IMG/VR virus record: IMGVR_UViG_3300045988_095676
Coordinates: 26,969-90,968 of that record
Length of the DNA stretch: 64,000 bases
Source: a virus
Direction: 5' to 3' (one strand)
Shown here: positions 4,324 through 59,100 of the stretch, piece by piece
How the letters are laid out: each line of letters starts with the position of its first letter
Numbering within the stretch: the first letter of the stretch is position 1
The notes under the pieces: generated by a model
Databases searched by the model: none
Told to the model about the DNA's origin: nothing
The model's input: the letters and a program-made list of their open reading frames with translations, nothing else
Program-made: the position numbers and the translations under genes

Positions 4324-4439
4324 GATATAAATGATTTTTTTAGTTAATTAATATCTTGACAAATATAGTTTTATTATACGGAAATCCTATTATTGATCTT
4401 CATAAATTAAAACTATCTTTATCCCAAAATAAGACAATT

Positions 4440-5554
4440 ATGAGAAGAAGATTTTTTAACAAAATAGGGGGGGGTATTTACCTACTGATAATTTTATAGT
4501 TTTTGATAAATCTGTATCAGATCCGGCTAATATAACAATAAGCGAAGACAGTGATTTTTTAAATAGGTTGATTACAAGTGGCTTTTATAGAGTTCTTTGC
4601 AAGAGCGCTATGGGAGGAGGAGAGGTTTTTGTATGTAGGTTGAAGGAAGACAACAGCAATTTGTATCTTGATGGTAGTCAGGCTAATCTTACCGGACCAG
4701 AAGGTGATGTGATGGTCGTTTTCTTAGAATTTTGGTATAAATGGTATAAGGTGGATGATAATAGATTTCTTTATCATTTTGCTGATCATGATATTGACGG
4801 CACTTACATCCATGTCCCGGAATCTCTTGTTGGAGCATATAAAGGATATGTATCTTTGAATGGATTATATAGCTGGAGTGGTGTTAGTCCTACAACTTCA
4901 AAATCATTCAACGATTTTGAAGGTTATGCGAAAGCGCGTGGTACCGGGTTTCAGATGATAGATTTTCAACAACATTGCGTGATTGCTATGATGTTGTATG
5001 CTAAGTACAAAACACGTAATATTCAATCTGTATTAGGATTAGGTGGCGCAAATAATAATCCGGCTACAACAACGGGAAGCAGCAACGCAACCGGCGGTGC
5101 GGATACCAAAAACGAAAGTTCAAAGTACGTTTGCGGCTTAGGTTTGGAAGGGGTTTTTGGTGGTATCTATGAATGGGTTGAAGGTGTAGAAATCAACAAC
5201 CGAGTTTGGAAAATCACCGACCCAGACGGATCGACTCGCAATGTGAACGCCGGAACTTCCAATGGCTGGATAACGAATATCGCAGCGGAAAACGGTCCGT
5301 TTTTCGATGTGGTGCCGACAAATGTTGGCGGTAACGATTCCATGCATTATTCAGATTACTATAGTCAGACATCGAGCAACTCCATTGTTTTGGCGCGCTC
5401 CTATAGCGGCTCGGATACGAGTAGTGGCGTGGCGTATGCGTATGCGTCTCGCAACGCGTTGAGCGCGAGTTCGTACTTCGGTTCGCGTCTTGCTTTCCGT
5501 GGAATCATATCCGAGGTGGCTCCAGAGCAGTTCAAAAAATTACCTGTATTATAA
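4440..5554 (+). CDS. fibre/receptor-binding-like protein with C-terminal FGE/C-type-lectin-like fold, interrupted at a G8 run (needs -1 shift)
   Basis: ATG 4440 encodes MRRRFFNKIGGG. The frame of ORF 4568..5554 is open back to 4460 through G8 at 4467-4474. GLGLEGVFGGIYEWVEG and the terminal ...GSRLAFRG resemble the GNVWEW / GFR motifs of FGE-type lectin folds. Confidence 0.5.
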
Positions 5555-5600
5555 TATCATATTTTAATTGTTTTTAAATTGTATTGTTTATATTATTGCG

Positions 5601-5608
5601 TATATTTG
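5601..5608 (+). promoter_or_regulatory. Bacteroidota-type -7 promoter box TATATTTG
   Basis: Matches TAnnTTTG, 26 nt upstream of ATG 5634. Confidence 0.45.
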
Positions 5609-5633
5609 CGATACAATTTAAAAACATTATATC

Positions 5634-8267: not shown

Positions 8268-8300
8268 ATGGGGAACTTTGGATAGGTTCCCCATATTTTT
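8268..8300 (+). terminator. intrinsic terminator
   Basis: 9-bp stem atggggaac/gttccccat, loop tttggatag, then ATTTTT. Confidence 0.7.
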
Positions 8301-8380
8301 ATGTGATGAGGGAGAGGAATGGTGAAATGTTTATGTGATGGGAGAGATATGAGAAAGAGGTTTATGTGATGGGAGAGAGG
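8299..8380 (+). repeat. three direct repeats TTATGTGATGrGrGAGAG (iteron-like)
   Basis: Copies at 8299-8317, 8331-8347 and 8362-8380, with period 31-32 bp. Confidence 0.8.
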
Positions 8381-8408
8381 GGGTACCTATCACGAACCTC
8401 CCGCCCCC

Positions 8409-8463
8409 GAAACGCGTTTTCTCCCCCGCACCCCCCTTCGCTGGAAAACCGGAAACGCGTTTT
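8409..8463. repeat. two copies of palindromic GAAACGCGTTTT embedded in C-runs
   Basis: Copies at 8409-8420 and 8452-8463. C-runs at 8400-02, 8404-08, 8423-27 and 8431-36. Confidence 0.8.
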
Positions 8464-8474
8464 ACCTCAAACCC

Positions 8475-8520
8475 ACAAACTCTCTGATTATCAATCACTT
8501 ATTTAAATTATTGATAATCA
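8475..8520. repeat. 11-bp perfect inverted repeat TGATTATCAAT / ATTGATAATCA
   Basis: Arms at 8475-8485 and 8510-8520. Related TGATWATCA copies near 8540 and 8623. Confidence 0.8.
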
Positions 8521-8705
8521 ATGTGTTATTATAACATATTGATTATAAGCCACTTAAATAAGCATATATCCTACATATTAATGTACGCGTATAACACTGC
8601 TCTCGTTCGTTTTATAACTTTCTGATAATCAGATAATATAATCGAAATTAATACAAATTAACAAAAAAAAGATATCATATATATTTGTAGTATTGATAAA
8701 TGTCG

Positions 8706-9398: not shown

Positions 9399-9960
9399 CA
9401 AGGCACGGAGAGCGCCGTTAAGCTCTCCAAAGGTTTGACGCGTACCGTTAAACGCGTCTGTACGCCGTTGTCAGTGGGTGCACGTCCCGCGTATGCTTTA
9501 GACTGAAGCTGACAAAACAGAGAGTTATTTTACATATTGGAGATAGATATACCGGTATCGAGGCCGTTGGCAATTAAAAATACGGTATTGCTGCATGAAC
9601 TGCACTAAATAAGTGTGGTTTATGTTAGGTATGTTAGTACAGTTTGGAAAACATACCGTTGTACGCGGTTTATCTCCAGACCGAAACGTGTCTTACTTGC
9701 CTACACGTAAAATAGGACAAGGCTGTAGATTAAATTACAGGGTATAAACATGTAGCCTACCATGTAGGAGCGTGATATATCAAAGCGCAAGGACACAATC
9801 GCCTTTATTTGTGGCTAAGTTGTGTAGCAGACGGAAAATATAATAACAACATAGTACGAGCCTGTACGCAAGAACTACGTACTAATTACGGGCTGTTGGT
9901 TGTAGCATAAAATCTCTATAGGATAGGAATGCGTGTCCGGTTCGATTCCGGAGCAACCTC
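9399..9960 (+). ncRNA. candidate large structured non-coding RNA ending in a tRNA/tmRNA-like T-arm
   Basis: No ORF. Many local hairpins, five CCGTTR motifs, an 8-bp long-range pairing (9538-45 with 9671-78) and a 3' end tccgg-ttcgatt-ccgga-gcaacc. Confidence 0.35.
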
Positions 9961-9983
9961 TAAATTATAAATAATATAATAGC

Positions 9984-11250: not shown

Positions 11251-11285
11251 ATTTTTTTTTAAGCGGGATGTTTAACAATTAAAAT

Positions 11286-11555: not shown

Positions 11556-11663
11556 GCGGCGCCTTGGGCTAAGGCCTGCGGTTGTAGGTGGAACGTAGGT
11601 CGGAGCAGAGCCGGAACAGTTTATTGTGGAACTAAAAAAAAATAAAAAGGAGGAGATAGCGAT

Positions 11664-11823: not shown

Positions 11824-11868
11824 TGGGATTCATGGTGCAGCAAGTCGGTTCGATTCCGGCGATCTCAC
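11824..11868 (+). ncRNA. tRNA-like acceptor/T-arm minihelix (not a full cloverleaf)
   Basis: Acceptor tgggatt/gatctca (7 bp including G3:U70), 13-nt linker, T-arm gtcgg-ttcgatt-ccggc. No D or anticodon arm. Confidence 0.4.
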
Positions 11869-11891
11869 ACAACATTAAAATAGGGAAGAAC

Positions 11892-13056: not shown

Positions 13057-13117
13057 GGGGATGACGCGGCGTGCCGGTGCGTATGTGCCGGTCCTGGTTC
13101 GATTCTGGGCATCTCAC
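13057..13117 (+). ncRNA. tRNA-like acceptor/T-arm element (not a full cloverleaf)
   Basis: ggggatg/catctca pairing (6 bp including G3:U70), 29-nt GC-rich linker with a gtgccggt direct repeat, T-arm cctgg-ttcgatt-ctggg. Confidence 0.35.
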
Positions 13118-13138
13118 AAACAATAAAACAAAAAAGTT

Positions 13139-26903: not shown

Positions 26904-27371
26904 ATGGGATTAACCTATAAAACAAAATTGCTTATGAAAACATTAGAACAACTTAAAGAATTAACATCAAAATGTTTAGACGGTAGAGATTTTAACAGAC
27001 TGGCTAAATTTGTTCCATATAGCATGATAAAGGATTTCGGTATGGAGCCGAATGAAGAATATGACAACGAGGAAAAGTGGAACAGTACTGTAGTTGAATT
27101 TACCAGAGAAAATGTCCTGAAACAGCTTGAAGAAGACGTAAGATTCGGTTTTGAAAAGGCATTAAATCAGAGAGGAATATCAGCCAGTTTGATGTTTGAA
27201 TGTGTGATGATGTGGAACTACATTCTGGAAGAAGGTCTTGAAGGCTGGGGTGAGGATGATTATGCATTTTATGGACTCCCTCTATTTAAAGCTACGGCTG
27301 TAAAATATGGATGGGACAATCCGATAGGGGAAGACAGCGGGAGAGAAAGAAAATATGATTCACAATATTAA
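26904..27371 (+). CDS. hypothetical protein
   Basis: ORF track. An alternative ATG at 26934 is possible. Confidence 0.6.
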   Translation: MGLTYKTKLLMKTLEQLKELTSKCLDGRDFNRLAKFVPYSMIKDFGMEPNEEYDNEEKWNSTVVEFTRENVLKQLEEDVRFGFEKALNQRGISASLMFECVMMWNYILEEGLEGWGEDDYAFYGLPLFKATAVKYGWDNPIGEDSGRERKYDSQY

Positions 27372-54511: not shown

Positions 54512-54558
54512 ACAACAATCCCCAACCATACAATAGGCGTACGGTTGGGGATTGTTGT
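54512..54558. terminator. bidirectional terminator at the convergence of + and - strand blocks
   Basis: Perfect 16-bp stem acaacaatccccaacc/ggttggggattgttgt with a 15-nt loop. Confidence 0.75.
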
Positions 54559-55293
54559 CATATCGTAAAATTAAGTGTTTTTTCTAATATCAGATATTCA
54601 GTATGAACTTTACTTCCGCCATCATTTATCAAGTCCAAATTAATATAAGCTGTATATGATACATGATGATCACCAGGAGCAAGACGTTTCATATCTGATA
54701 AGAACATAGAATTTAAACCTTGGCCAGACCATGATTCTGGATATGGCAAAGGTTTAAAGTCGGCGTCTGTACATCTTACAACCCAAGTAAGATTAGGATC
54801 TGCCCTAACTATTCTATCATGAGGTCCATCAATTACAAGATCTGGCATCTCATATTGGTAACTATCATAATTAAGGACAATAGGATCACCAAAGTTTACA
54901 CCGTATATAGCAGCAGGTGGAGTAAAGCTTGTTATTAAAAAGGTTCTATTAATCCTATTGGTTGTTCTTAGCGTAAACTCATCAGGTGCTATCACACTTA
55001 CTCTAAATCCATAATAAGGAGAGGTTGTTAAAGCAATAGCAAGAACCACCGAATCCTGTTCAAGCAATTCCTCTGTCGTATCAACCTGACTATCGATCTC
55101 TTGCCTATCTTCCATTGGAACACCGCCTTGGACACTTATGGAATCCAGCCGTTCTTTTTTAGACAGAAAGATAAATTGCCCGCCCTGTGGAATGGTGCCT
55201 ACTTTCTTTCCTTCTACGATTACCCCCCCCTATACAATCGCTAACTATCTTATACTCATATAGTTTAGCATTATTTTCAAATCTTCTTCTCAT
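54558..55293 (-). CDS. MRRRF-family fibre-like protein interrupted at a G8 run (needs +1 shift)
   Basis: ATG at 55293 encodes MRRRFENNAKLYEYKIVSDCIGGG. The coding-strand G8 is plus-strand C8 at 55223-55230. The frame of ORF 54558..55115 is open up to 55229. Confidence 0.5.
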
Positions 55294-55297
55294 AATT

Positions 55298-55916
55298 TCA
55301 TAAAATTAATTCGGTAAAGGGGCGGACATAACGTGGATTACTCCTTGTACTTGTATCCAAATGATCTCCTTGGATGTTTATATCATAATACCACGAATAG
55401 GTAAATTGTGTAGATTGAGTGGATGTCCACATTTTATTACTCATTATCGTACCTCCTACCATTAAAAGGCATTCGTTTATTTCATTCGCATACAATGATA
55501 TCAAAAAAAAACTCTCCGGCGCCACCTACATATCCATTTTGACCATTTTTAAATAAATAGCTATTAGCTTTATTAAAAGCGTAATTTTCATTACTGGTAT
55601 CATATTCAAGATACGCATTCTGATTTTCACGCCCCCAATAATCCTTTTTAACGGTCTTCATATAAGAACTATTTTGTGCAAATACATTGTCTACTCTTCC
55701 ATCCTTACCCCAACTAAATGTGCCAATATATTCGGTGGCTATAACAAAACACACTTTATCTACAAGAGCTATTCCATTGCATAGATCATTGGAATATCCT
55801 TTATTAGACCAATTTTCTTTTGTATATAATCCTCCATCTACATGTTGGATGTATATGCCTTTATTGATTATAAGCGAGGGATTTACCCCCATCCCTATTT
55901 GAAATCTTCGTCTCAT
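55298..55916 (-). CDS. MRRRF-family fibre-like protein with C-terminal DUF1566 domain, interrupted at a T9 run (needs +1 shift)
   Basis: ATG at 55916 encodes MRRRFQIGMGV. ORFs 55482..56003 and 55298..55525 join across plus-strand A9 at 55503-55511 to give ...GAGEFFLISLYANEINECL...MWTSTQSTQ...YVRPF, a contiguous DUF1566 pattern. Confidence 0.5.
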
Positions 55917-56130: not shown

Positions 56131-59100
56131 CTATTTGTAACTAACGTCATCGTCTCCTTCCGAATCAGGAGTAGCGCCGATGAAGAACATCATTGACTTG
56201 TTGTTCGTCTGCTGCCACCAATTATAGGCGCGCGCTACGTCTTCCGGCGTCTTGATATTATACCATTGTTTGATAAACGTCTGTTTGGCGAGTTGCCTAA
56301 ATAACTTAGACTCTCCCTTGTATGTACCGGATGTTACTTTATCAAGTGAATAATTCCTAAGATCGGTAAGATCCTTCAGTTTTCGCCCCATAACAAACGG
56401 ATCGTTAATGATATCTACCACGTTAAGCTCCATAATAAACGGCATCTGTGAAGCTATTTCGTTTATGGTTCTGAATCCGACATAGGATCCAAATTGAGTA
56501 AGCCAACTTTCTTCGTTTTCATCATCATCACGCCATCCGGCAAGAAGCATAGATACGGCCTGCATGATAAGGAACGTGCCGGCATAGACACTGAGGCGTT
56601 TGAGATTAGTTTTTTCTACCTCATTCATATTGTCTTTATTTTCGTTCCAGGCATCTATGATGTTTTTCATACCAGACTCGGAAGCCAGGCTAAATGTTTT
56701 GGCTATCATATTCTTTAACGTAATTGACAACCCTTCCTCTTCTTGCATTGTCTGGAAATTGAAGCCACGTCTTTTCCACAGACGTTGAGCTGCCAGCACC
56801 AGCCAGCCTCGGTGGGCGGTCATGAACCTGGCTATCCAGTTGCGCGATGCGGCAGTTCGGTTTTCTTCATTCAAAGATCCGTTACATATCTGCGACAAGC
56901 TACGGACTTGATTCCTGGTTATAGCCATCTGGGTTTCAACTTCCTCAACAGTAACACCCGATCCCGGCTTTACAACCACCTTTCCATCCACGACGTCTAC
57001 CATACTCCATAAAGTACGATCTTTTAATGCGTTCCATTCTCTTTTTATGGTACTCTGTTCTTTATTGCGTTCTTTTTCCATCTTGAAATCTTGGAACGTG
57101 TAGAACCGGCCTTTGTAATAACGAACATTGTCCATAGTAGCAATCATAACCTGCGGATCAAGAGGGTAGTTCAGGATTTCCATAAAAGCATACATAGGCG
57201 AACGCATTAAGGTCCTGGCCGCTCTATTGTATCCGGCACCATACATACGATTTCGGATATTGAATATCCCCATTCTCTCACCTATGACATATAATTTGCT
57301 TTTCCTATCTATGTCTCCGGTTTCTGCTATACAAGATGGCGCAAGACGGGAAAACTCAGCCGATGCGTATTTAAGGGAATCTTTGCTTATATACTGTCCT
57401 ACGGCTGATTCCATGATGAGGTTGATATGGCCTGTCAGGGCGCCGGTAGCTGCCACAAACGGAGACAGTGCCAAGTTCATAACCGACATAAATCTTTCAA
57501 CAGCCATCATAATTCTTGTAAGGTCTACCGTATATCCTCCGATGTTCACCGTAAGTTTTTTGGTGTTCATCCTAATGCCATAATAATGATCGTTGAAGAA
57601 GTCCCTGAACATCTGATATGCTTGGGTTGCTTCAGCCTTTTTACCACCTTCAAATTGTTTATTTAGTAACATCTGCTCCAGTCCTTGGGCAAGCTCTATA
57701 GACTTCTGCTTTTCGTTGTATAACGATGATTGCATCATAAGCATCGAATAAGAGTAGCCAAAATCGTGAGATACATCATCTTGGTTCTCCAATTCATATA
57801 TGTAGTATTTAGGTATAGACCTAAGCCTGTCTTCTGGATCATACACTTCTCCTTGCCTGGTCTTACCATATAGAGAATCGTCTACTCTGTCCAGGCACAG
57901 ATCTGATACAAAATTACGAACCGTATTTTTGAAGTTAATACCCAATCCTTCTACACGTTCTATATCTTGTTTGGATATCTGTGGAATAGCATACAGGTTC
58001 GGGCTCTGCTCTTTGTATAGATCAAGGGATTGTCTTTTTATTTCCTTGAGTTTTTGAATCATATTCCACTGCTCTACGTTTTTAGTAGCAACCTCATTAC
58101 CGTCAGCATCATACTTGATACCAAAGTCATTGAAATACGATTCGTCACGATACAGGCTTTTCTTAGGCATTCGATGACCATACCCATGATCTTTTACATA
58201 ATCAGGATTACGACCGCTATTTTCGGCTTCAGATTCAGCCACCCATGCCCTTGCAGGGTCGAAAGACAAGTACGATATGTCCATGCCATAATCTTGGGTG
58301 GATGTACCGTTTTGTACGTCCTTAACCATTTGCGCCACATCTATCTCACCTCGACCGATTTTGTCGATCATAGCTGCATATCCGGTAGGCGCCATGCGTT
58401 TATAGTACGAAAAAACCTGGCTTCTGGCAAATTCATTAACAATAGCATTAGCTTCTTCTACGCCCTCTTCTCTTGTATTATTTAAAAATAAGCTGGCCAT
58501 CTTAGCATTAACAGCATTCCTGAAATCTCTACCGTCTAATTCTTTGCTTATACCAAGCTTTTCTGACAGGTAGTTGGTTTCAGATACGGTAAACAGATAT
58601 CGGTTATCAGCAGCCTTAAACAGCTTATCCCTTAAAGCCTGAATCCTTTTTGCTTTCTTCGCCGTAGTATGACGTTGTACGAACTTCCATTCCACTTCCT
58701 TGGAGTCAGCAAGAGCATTTAAATAAGACTGATTTACTTCGTTTTCAGCCTTACTGCTTTTAGTAAGGTACTTATCAATATCTTCAAGACCCACCATCTT
58801 AGCATAATCTATCAAAATAGCGTAATCGGCTTCAATAGCTTCAGATGCGGCCCTAAAAGCATCTCTTTCGGATGAGGTAAATGTCGCTTCGTTAATTTCT
58901 CCGATATCAGCCACATCGCGATTGTTTCCGATTATTTCCTTGATAATAGCCTTATTTTTTTCTATATCTTTCACAATAGAATCCACGTCAGTCGCATCTC
59001 TATCACTTGTCGTAGAACTAATGATATCATGCGCCATTTTAAGATACGAAGCCTTGTTATTTGATTCGGTACGTGCCGACTGTTCTGATTCTACATCATT

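Follow-up and report, generated by a model that had tools for sequence, protein, structure and literature searches.

Switching of phage genes through homopolymer length has its closest described counterpart in the Fletchervirus phages of Campylobacter, in which hypermutable polyG tracts were reportedly found by Sorensen et al. 2021 (Cell Rep 35:109214). The polyG work of Sorensen 2021 is cited in passages of PMC12823448 and PMC10877375. In the Campylobacter phages the G tracts lie in receptor-binding-type genes, tract length gives ON/OFF variants and phenotypic diversity, and several genes per genome are affected. A similar arrangement is seen in a 64,000-nucleotide (nt) stretch of viral DNA, hereafter the window (positions 26,969 to 90,968 of IMG/VR record IMGVR_UViG_3300045988_095676). 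Two runs of eight G's (G8), site 1 on the plus strand and site 2 on the minus strand, each separate a leader beginning MRRRF from the body of a gene, which is in frame with the start of that leader (ON) at some tract lengths and out of frame (OFF) at others. These runs are probably polyG contingency loci, at which slipped-strand changes in length switch accessory tail or receptor-binding proteins.

The likeness has its limits. The Campylobacter phages belong to another phage group and have no protein homology to the virus described here, an epsilon crAss-like phage with a presumed Bacteroidales host. Its 12-kb replication block aligns over 81% of its length, at about 92% identity, to the human gut phage crAssE-Sib (OR575929.1, 151 kb), which is described as an epsilon crAss-like phage, a group encoding no DNA polymerase (PMC11054128). 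In this phage one MRRRF leader is common to the genes, the tract invariably comes after it and supplies a Gly linker, and the system is known from sequence alone. The hosts differ too: Campylobacter itself uses polyG phase variation, whereas the phase variation cited for Bacteroides concerns capsules and lipoproteins. Phase variation in Bacteroides works mainly through invertible promoters. Host-side variation of capsules and lipoproteins has been documented by Porter 2020 and Shkoporov 2021, according to a passage of PMC12823448.

Bacterial contingency loci with polyG or polyC tracts, as in Neisseria, Haemophilus and Campylobacter, offer a second parallel. There too the tract sits near the 5' end of an open reading frame (ORF), slipped-strand events switch the frame, several loci switch independently to give combinatorial diversity and surface-interaction genes are the targets. 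The present case differs in that the loci reside in a virus, where the switch would act per burst and not per cell lineage. Contingency loci have also been described in phages T2 and T4, in which simple sequence repeats (SSRs) are mostly short runs (at least 6), occur in many gene classes and are under-represented in coliphage tail-fibre genes (Gomez, Barrick and Waters 2025, bioRxiv 10.1101/2025.10.21.683753). Both cases share the idea that SSRs could serve bet-hedging by reversibly shifting the frame of phage genes, but here long G runs are confined to a single putative tail-accessory gene family and the genome otherwise avoids them.

Two further systems invite comparison. The variable proteins of diversity-generating retroelements (DGRs), among them Mtd of the Bordetella phage, TaqVP, TvpA and the Hankyphage target, share the C-type-lectin/formylglycine-generating enzyme (FGE) fold predicted for the site-1 protein, and both systems would diversify ligand-binding proteins. 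However, DGRs bring about amino-acid diversification by mutagenic retrohoming, while here a frameshift would turn the protein ON or OFF. Programmed frameshifting and transcriptional slippage, as in the G/GT tail assembly chaperones, the A-runs of IS elements and dnaX, likewise involve a homopolymer where two frames overlap. Those sites are of fixed, conserved length and set a product ratio; at the loci described here the length of the DNA itself varies and many genomes are in frame.

The crAss-like phages are among the most abundant human gut viruses, and how they persist alongside hosts which change their surfaces is an open question. In the literature library searched, no paper was found that brings crAss-like phages together with homopolymer or contingency-locus terms. 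The paper on the epsilon crAss-like phages (PMC11054128) describes phage-side DGRs and makes no mention of frameshifts or homopolymers. If the tracts are real switches, they would represent a second and much cheaper phage-side mechanism of diversity, in which whole accessory binding proteins are turned ON or OFF. Metagenomes would then directly show, sample by sample, which of these genes are ON, via tract length modulo 3.

Two genes interrupted by G8 tracts

At site 1, direct reading from ATG 4440 gives MRRRFFNKIGGGIYLLIIL, which begins MRRRFFNKIGGG and ends at TAG 4497-4499, and the frame to which ORF 4568..5554 belongs has no stop from 4460 on, across the G run, both as stated in a preliminary description of this DNA. 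The run is exactly 8 nt long and begins 27 nt after ATG 4440. One additional G fuses the two frames into a protein of 371 amino acids (aa), in keeping with the approximately 370 aa foreseen for a G9 allele, and database protein P0001 matches this fusion at 100% identity over all 371 aa. The protein database also has dozens of relatives of 370-372 aa starting MRRRFFNKIGGG. Homologues at 45-60% identity are without the G run and still start MRRRF or MRRRY, one of them reading MRRRFHSRQSGGPYVSVIFDKS, which identifies the leader as the family's true N-terminus. Its conservation upstream of site-1 homologues, on which the preliminary reading had been made to depend, extends down to about 45% identity.

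The MRRRF genes are broken up or shortened by gene callers, and as a result both their prevalence and their real N-terminus are missed in virome annotation. For OFF alleles the database holds truncated calls of 352, 314, 226 and 185 aa. Peptides spanning the junction in the fused frame are KIGGGYLPTDNF and CIGGGVIVEGK, the latter in site-2 ON forms. In site-1 relatives containing the stretch NFMVFDKS (such as P0008 and P0031) an internal ATG, present in many haplotypes, lies 19 codons in, and gives rise to the 352-aa calls from OFF alleles. If this start were used in vivo, the switch would cost these haplotypes the MRRRF leader only and the rest of the protein would be kept. In the window's haplotype the residue there is Ile, and that start is absent.

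At site 2 the reading from ATG 55293 on the minus strand is MRRRFENNAKLYEYKIVSDCIGGGNRRR... and stops after 44 codons, the tract starting 63 nt after the ATG. A recurrence of MRRRF and G8 at 55223-55230 had been noted in the preliminary description, and this minus-strand twin stands; the same repair is not valid for it, however, as frame is restored by the addition of one G at site 1 (G9 or G6) and at site 2 by G10 or G7. Site-2 ON forms of 245 aa (...CIGGGVIVEGK...) are abundant in the protein database.

The two G8 tracts are the only G/C runs of at least 7 in the 64 kb of the window, in which such runs are otherwise depleted: 18 of at least 5 are observed versus 41 expected and 3 of at least 6 versus 9.2, while for runs of at least 8 there are 2 versus 0.39 expected. 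The 13-mer ATAGGGGGGGGTA is found at both sites and not once in 100 shuffles, and the leader start ATGAGAAGAAGATTT (with at most 1 mismatch) occurs three times versus 0.03 expected. A large inversion between the inverted leader copies of 15-19 nt was considered as a separate matter and rejected, the repeat being the common start of paralogous leaders, of which a third copy is present.

Variation in tract length among relatives

Tract lengths were compared among 48 IMG/VR contigs carrying the site-1 leader and 51 carrying the site-2 leader, these related viral contigs spanning 80-158 kb. The site-1 run ranges from G5 to G11, with 19 contigs ON and 29 OFF. A single fixed in-frame length, set beforehand as the outcome that would count against a switch, was not found. 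Instead four flank types can be told apart among the site-1 contigs; the in-frame length is particular to each type, and within a type the ON or OFF state tracks length modulo 3. The window's flank type (TATTTACC) includes G6 (1 contig, ON), G7 (2), G8 (10), G9 (3, ON), G10 (3) and G11 (1), while in the type CGGTCTCC five contigs have G9, which for that type is ON plus one. At site 2 there are 23 ON and 28 OFF contigs, those of the window's flank type comprising G8 (4), G9 (20) and G10 (18, ON).

Both states occur on near-identical backgrounds, which bears out the earlier suggestion of a conserved slippery ON/OFF site. Among 27 contig pairs at least 99.5% identical over the 1 kb downstream of site 1, tract lengths differ in 20, and one pair has G6 versus G10 at 100% identity. 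The window's exact haplotypes were followed in contigs from different studies that encode its OFF-type gene call. At site 1 (1080 nt downstream 99.9-100% identical) independent assemblies have G8 in seven cases and G10 in one, and G9 is present in the single contig with the exact ON protein; at site 2 (665 nt 99.9-100% identical) four assemblies have G8 and six G9. The exact-haplotype ON and OFF contigs came from different samples. Control homopolymers are invariant in the same contigs, namely A8 at 8663 (25/25), A7 at 693 (25/25) and T7 at 58955 (17/17). Length at the tracts thus varies far faster than substitutions accumulate around them. The states of the loci are independent of one another, all four combinations of ON and OFF occurring across them.

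The gene bodies are meanwhile maintained. The site-1 body is intact in 20-21 of the 24 scorable OFF alleles and in 15 of 18 ON alleles, and that of site 2 in essentially all contigs. The pairwise ratio of nonsynonymous to synonymous substitution rates (dN/dS), estimated for site 1 only as site 2 is too little diverged for a meaningful value, is 0.32 for OFF-OFF, 0.30 for ON-ON and 0.31 for mixed pairs. Because the ratio is equal across states, the current state is uninformative on long-term constraint; such state-independence would be what a transient, reversible state predicts. The loci thus present three of the features by which contingency loci are recognised: a tract of at least 7 within an ORF, a length that changes faster than its surroundings and toggling of the frame of an intact gene, with constraint shown for site 1.

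In the mechanism proposed, slipped-strand mispairing during phage DNA replication would gain or lose G's, and a change of 1-2 bases would either break or restore the continuity of frame between the MRRRF start and the body. For each gene, the progeny of one burst would then comprise both ON and OFF genomes. The tract would lie in a disordered Gly linker between the MRRRF peptide and the folded domain, and because of this position in-frame length changes would be harmless and the OFF state would cost only a peptide of 19-44 residues. The slipping polymerase is presumably that of the host, since the epsilon crAss-like phages encode none (PMC11054128). We infer slippage as the mechanism, and with it reversibility within a lineage, location on the virion and binding to the host surface, docking through MRRRF and adaptive bet-hedging against phase-variable Bacteroidales surfaces.

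Alternative explanations

The serious rival to slipped-strand switching is neutral erosion, by which dispensable accessory genes would be frameshifted at a mutational hotspot with no adaptive switching, the OFF alleles being young pseudogenes that are lost or recombined away. We consider it unlikely, although a number of observations accord with it or otherwise weigh against a switch. The OFF form of the window's site-1 haplotype is far commoner than the exact ON protein (521 versus 1 index blocks), a skew which suits a clone with a frameshifted dispensable gene as well as it suits a switch. The site-1 gene is absent altogether from crAssE-Sib, and all three MRRRF genes of the window, the third of which is described below, are out of frame. 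The ON fractions of 40% and 45% are close to the one-third expected of random lengths and only modestly above it. Relatives also vary by 1-2 bases in some A/T runs that are apparently intergenic, and instability is to that extent not unique to the G tracts. The site-1 gene is located within a replication and nucleotide-metabolism block and not in the tail module, whilst the site-2 and gene-3 proteins are without a recognisable family and the site-2 model is poor. Finally, all of the evidence on variation comes from the comparison of consensus assemblies, and heterogeneity within one phage population and true reversibility are predictions of the switch.

Erosion is nevertheless difficult to reconcile with a dN/dS of about 0.3 that is the same for OFF-OFF and ON-ON pairs, and with bodies that are no worse preserved in OFF alleles than in ON alleles. 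ON and OFF alleles are intermingled among near-identical haplotypes, MRRRF genes are the only place where long G runs persist in a genome which otherwise avoids G/C runs, and the unit of leader and tract is found on four unrelated bodies.

Programmed recoding at the RNA level, in which an out-of-frame tract is intended and RNA polymerase slippage or ribosomal frameshifting sets a product ratio by way of dosage control, is a less probable explanation still. A programmed site should keep its length, yet here anything between 5 and 11 is seen, and in 40-45% of genomes the gene is in frame. The commonest OFF lengths in the window's flank types are, it is true, ON minus one (G8 at site 1, G9 at site 2), a defect that could be made good by a single additional G in the transcript or by a ribosomal shift of -1, a G run permits tRNA-Gly re-pairing in the -1 frame, and OFF predominates in the window's clone. 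Other flank types, however, are commonly ON plus one, as in the five G9 contigs of type CGGTCTCC, and the window's own site 2 is two steps from ON. The minimum free energy of the 86 nt following each tract is no better than that of shuffles (z = +0.66 and -0.45). Where the preliminary description had left the choice between slippage of DNA and slippage of RNA polymerase or ribosome, slippage at the DNA level is now favoured and RNA or ribosome slippage is not required; some leaky expression from OFF templates may occur.

Three homopolymer frameshifts (G8, G8 and T9) in one 64-kb window might also be read as errors of base calling or assembly confined to this assembly, with the true genome in frame. 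This is highly improbable, as G8 is present in 7 independent assemblies at site 1 and 4 at site 2, from different studies, the OFF gene calls occur in 521 and 288 index blocks respectively, other coding-region homopolymers agree with those of relatives and an ORF of 2140 codons is intact. The caveat of a base-calling error raised initially has accordingly been dropped, G8 recurring in independent assemblies of the same haplotype. An alternative code in which TAG is read as Gln, as in some crAss-like phages, would render the breaks illusory, and the site-2 body frame is indeed closed upstream by two TAG codons only, with ATG 55271 then in frame with G8, but it may be set aside almost with certainty given that TAG is the terminator of 7 of 55 long ORFs (the gene for the 2140-aa structural protein among them), that all long ORFs are intact under code 11, that the window has no suppressor tRNA and that site 1 is not rescued, a TAA following its TAG.

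The site-1 and site-2 proteins

The AlphaFold2 (AF2) model of the site-1 protein has a predicted local distance difference test score (pLDDT) of 92 and a predicted template modelling score (pTM) of 0.91, with the first 15 residues, comprising leader and Gly tract, disordered. The best Foldseek matches in the PDB are the DGR variable proteins TaqVP (E = 4e-11), TvpA and Mtd, together with formylglycine-generating enzymes. A C-type-lectin/FGE fold is thus supported by the model. Of the 'lectin-fold fibre' named in the preliminary description, the lectin fold is upheld by AF2 and Foldseek, whereas the term fibre does not carry over to a 371-aa globular protein encoded in a replication block.

Sequence comparisons point in the same direction. 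The site-1 protein matches PHROG families of tail proteins (phrog_5302, tail protein) and is similar to annotated tail proteins of Bacteroides and Phocaeicola phages, and over its final ~140 residues it shares ~35% identity with the variable end of the Hankyphage DGR target. Its lectin-fold domain also forms the C-terminal part of Bacteroidales proteins of 600-640 aa with an Mfa-like fimbrillin domain (PF13149), namely P0111, P0114 and P0120, which suggests that the domain may be common to phage tail proteins and host fimbrial adhesins. From the fold and these tail-protein and fimbrillin homologies, a ligand-binding role of the site-1 protein is a reasonable inference.

The possibility that the gene is itself a DGR target was also considered, as the fold matches and the C-terminus resembles a variable repeat (VR), and was ruled out because the window has no template repeat and diversity is not confined to a VR. 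No template repeat for the site-1 3' end was found within the 64 kb, of a genome of ~150 kb, nor was a reverse transcriptase found in the window. Diversity among site-1 relatives is broadly higher in the distal half of the gene. Compared with crAssE-Sib, the site-1 gene is in its entirety an insertion: window positions 4324-5633 correspond to OR575929.1 4819-5004, a gap of 185 bp between the homologues of the flanking genes.

Less can be said of the site-2 protein, for which searches of Pfam, PHROGs and PDB sequences returned no matching family. Its AF2 model is poor (pLDDT 55) and all-beta.

A wider family of MRRRF genes

A third MRRRF gene (gene 3) is present in the window immediately upstream of site 2 and directly after the gene for a 2140-aa virion structural protein, such that gene 3 and site 2 are both located just downstream of this structural gene. 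The coordinates of all three genes are given in Table 1. The DNA at the start of gene 3, ATA GGG ATG GGG GTA, is the site-2 ON tract with its middle codon interrupted. Among relatives the 5' tract is G3ATG5 in 33 cases (ON), G3ATG6 in five (OFF) and G3ATG8 in three (ON); uninterrupted tracts are seen as G10 in one case and G9 in contig L122. Towards the 3' end of the gene, a T-run is T7 in five, T8 in 40 and T9 in three of 48 relatives, and the 205-aa protein of the T8 form ends just ahead of the site-2 ATG. The gene-3 protein, like that of site 2, has no family match in Pfam, PHROGs or PDB sequence searches.

Table 1. Positions in the window of the components of the three MRRRF genes
Feature	Position	Strand	Remarks
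Site-1 leader, codons for MRRRFFNKI	4440..4466	+	true N-terminus of the protein family; residues 1-15 disordered in AF2 model
Site-1 polyG tract, G8 = OFF	4467..4474	+	Gly linker if in frame; ON at G9 or G6 (window's flank type)
Site-1 OFF-state product, 19-codon ORF	4440..4499	+	ends at TAG 4497-4499
Site-1 body, 360 codons including last Gly codon	4475..5554	+	stop TAA 5552-5554; -1 frame relative to ATG 4440; predicted C-type-lectin/FGE fold
Site-2 leader, codons for MRRRFENNAKLYEYKIVSDCI	55231..55293	-	ATG 55293
Site-2 polyG tract, G8 = OFF (C8 on + strand)	55223..55230	-	ON at G10 for window's flank type
Site-2 OFF-state product, 44-codon ORF plus stop	55159..55293	-	
Site-2 body, 221 codons plus stop	54558..55222	-	+1 frame relative to ATG 55293; all-beta in AF2 model, no family hit
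Third MRRRF gene (MRRRFQIGMGV...), ATG 55916	55482..55916	-	144 aa here, truncated
Gene-3 5' tract GGGATGGGGG, interrupted (stabilised) ATA-Gn-GTA module	55886..55895	-	in frame here
Gene-3 3' T-run, T9 here = frameshift	55503..55511	-	T8 in most relatives, giving 205 aa and ending at TGA 55300-55298

The leader extends beyond the window and its close relatives. crAssE-Sib has five genes beginning MRRRF or MRRRY, all of them small ORFs of the structural region. A tblastn comparison finds no counterpart of the site-1 or the site-2 gene in that genome. One of its MRRRF genes spells the leader with different codons (ATG AGG CGT CGT TTC), and the conservation of the leader is therefore at the level of protein. 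The only long G run in the 150 kb of crAssE-Sib is a G11 positioned 19 nt ahead of an MRRRF gene with resemblance to minor tail proteins (phrog_416), at OR575929.1 63256-63285 (L118 13256-13285); a relative, L130, has G10. This run may represent a promoter or 5' untranslated region type of the same switch.

A fourth type of body is found at ~897-928 of a 147-kb contig (L133, IMGVR_UViG_3300007797_000006), where MRRRFMSHGG is followed by G8. The body of ~222 codons (VETQRRFYVKLPH...) is unrelated to the others and is out of frame in this contig. The module of leader and tract thus recurs on at least four unrelated gene bodies, and it is this sharing of one module by several unrelated bodies that is the distinctive feature of the present system.

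It is attractive to consider, if only tentatively, that the module is a portable cassette. An MRRRF docking peptide and a polyG-encoded Gly linker would precede at least four unrelated binding or decoration domains, which would compete for a common site on the tail. Flipping independently, these genes could yield up to 2^n virion types per burst, as a counterpart to phase variation of capsules and surface proteins in the Bacteroidales hosts and alongside the DGRs of related genomes.

Genome context and minor features

Genes in the window are strongly strand-biased, and there are four tRNAs, for Met, Gln(TTG), Arg and Cys. A motif resembling a tRNA T-arm (GGTTCGATTCCGG...) occurs in three copies, at 9939-9971, 11847-11879 and 13096-13128, which are not called as tRNA by ARAGORN or Rfam.

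The A/T runs that drift among relatives are those at 4335-4341 (T7), 11252-11260 (T9) and 11634-11642 (A9). A short way ahead of the site-1 promoter region, for example, relatives have T7, T8 or T9.

A C6 at 8431-8436, the one further G/C run of at least 6 in the window, falls within a non-coding region at 8290-8480. In this region TTTATGTGATGGGAGAG occurs as three direct repeats ahead of a GC-rich segment which has two copies of GAAACGCGTTTT and contains the C6. It has no match in Rfam, and is possibly an origin or regulatory region.

At the other end of the site-2 gene, a perfect 16-bp inverted repeat (ACAACAATCCCCAACC / GGTTGGGGATTGTTGT) with a 15-nt loop is located at 54512-54558, exactly between convergent gene blocks. 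It covers the last base of the site-2 stop codon and is probably a bidirectional terminator.

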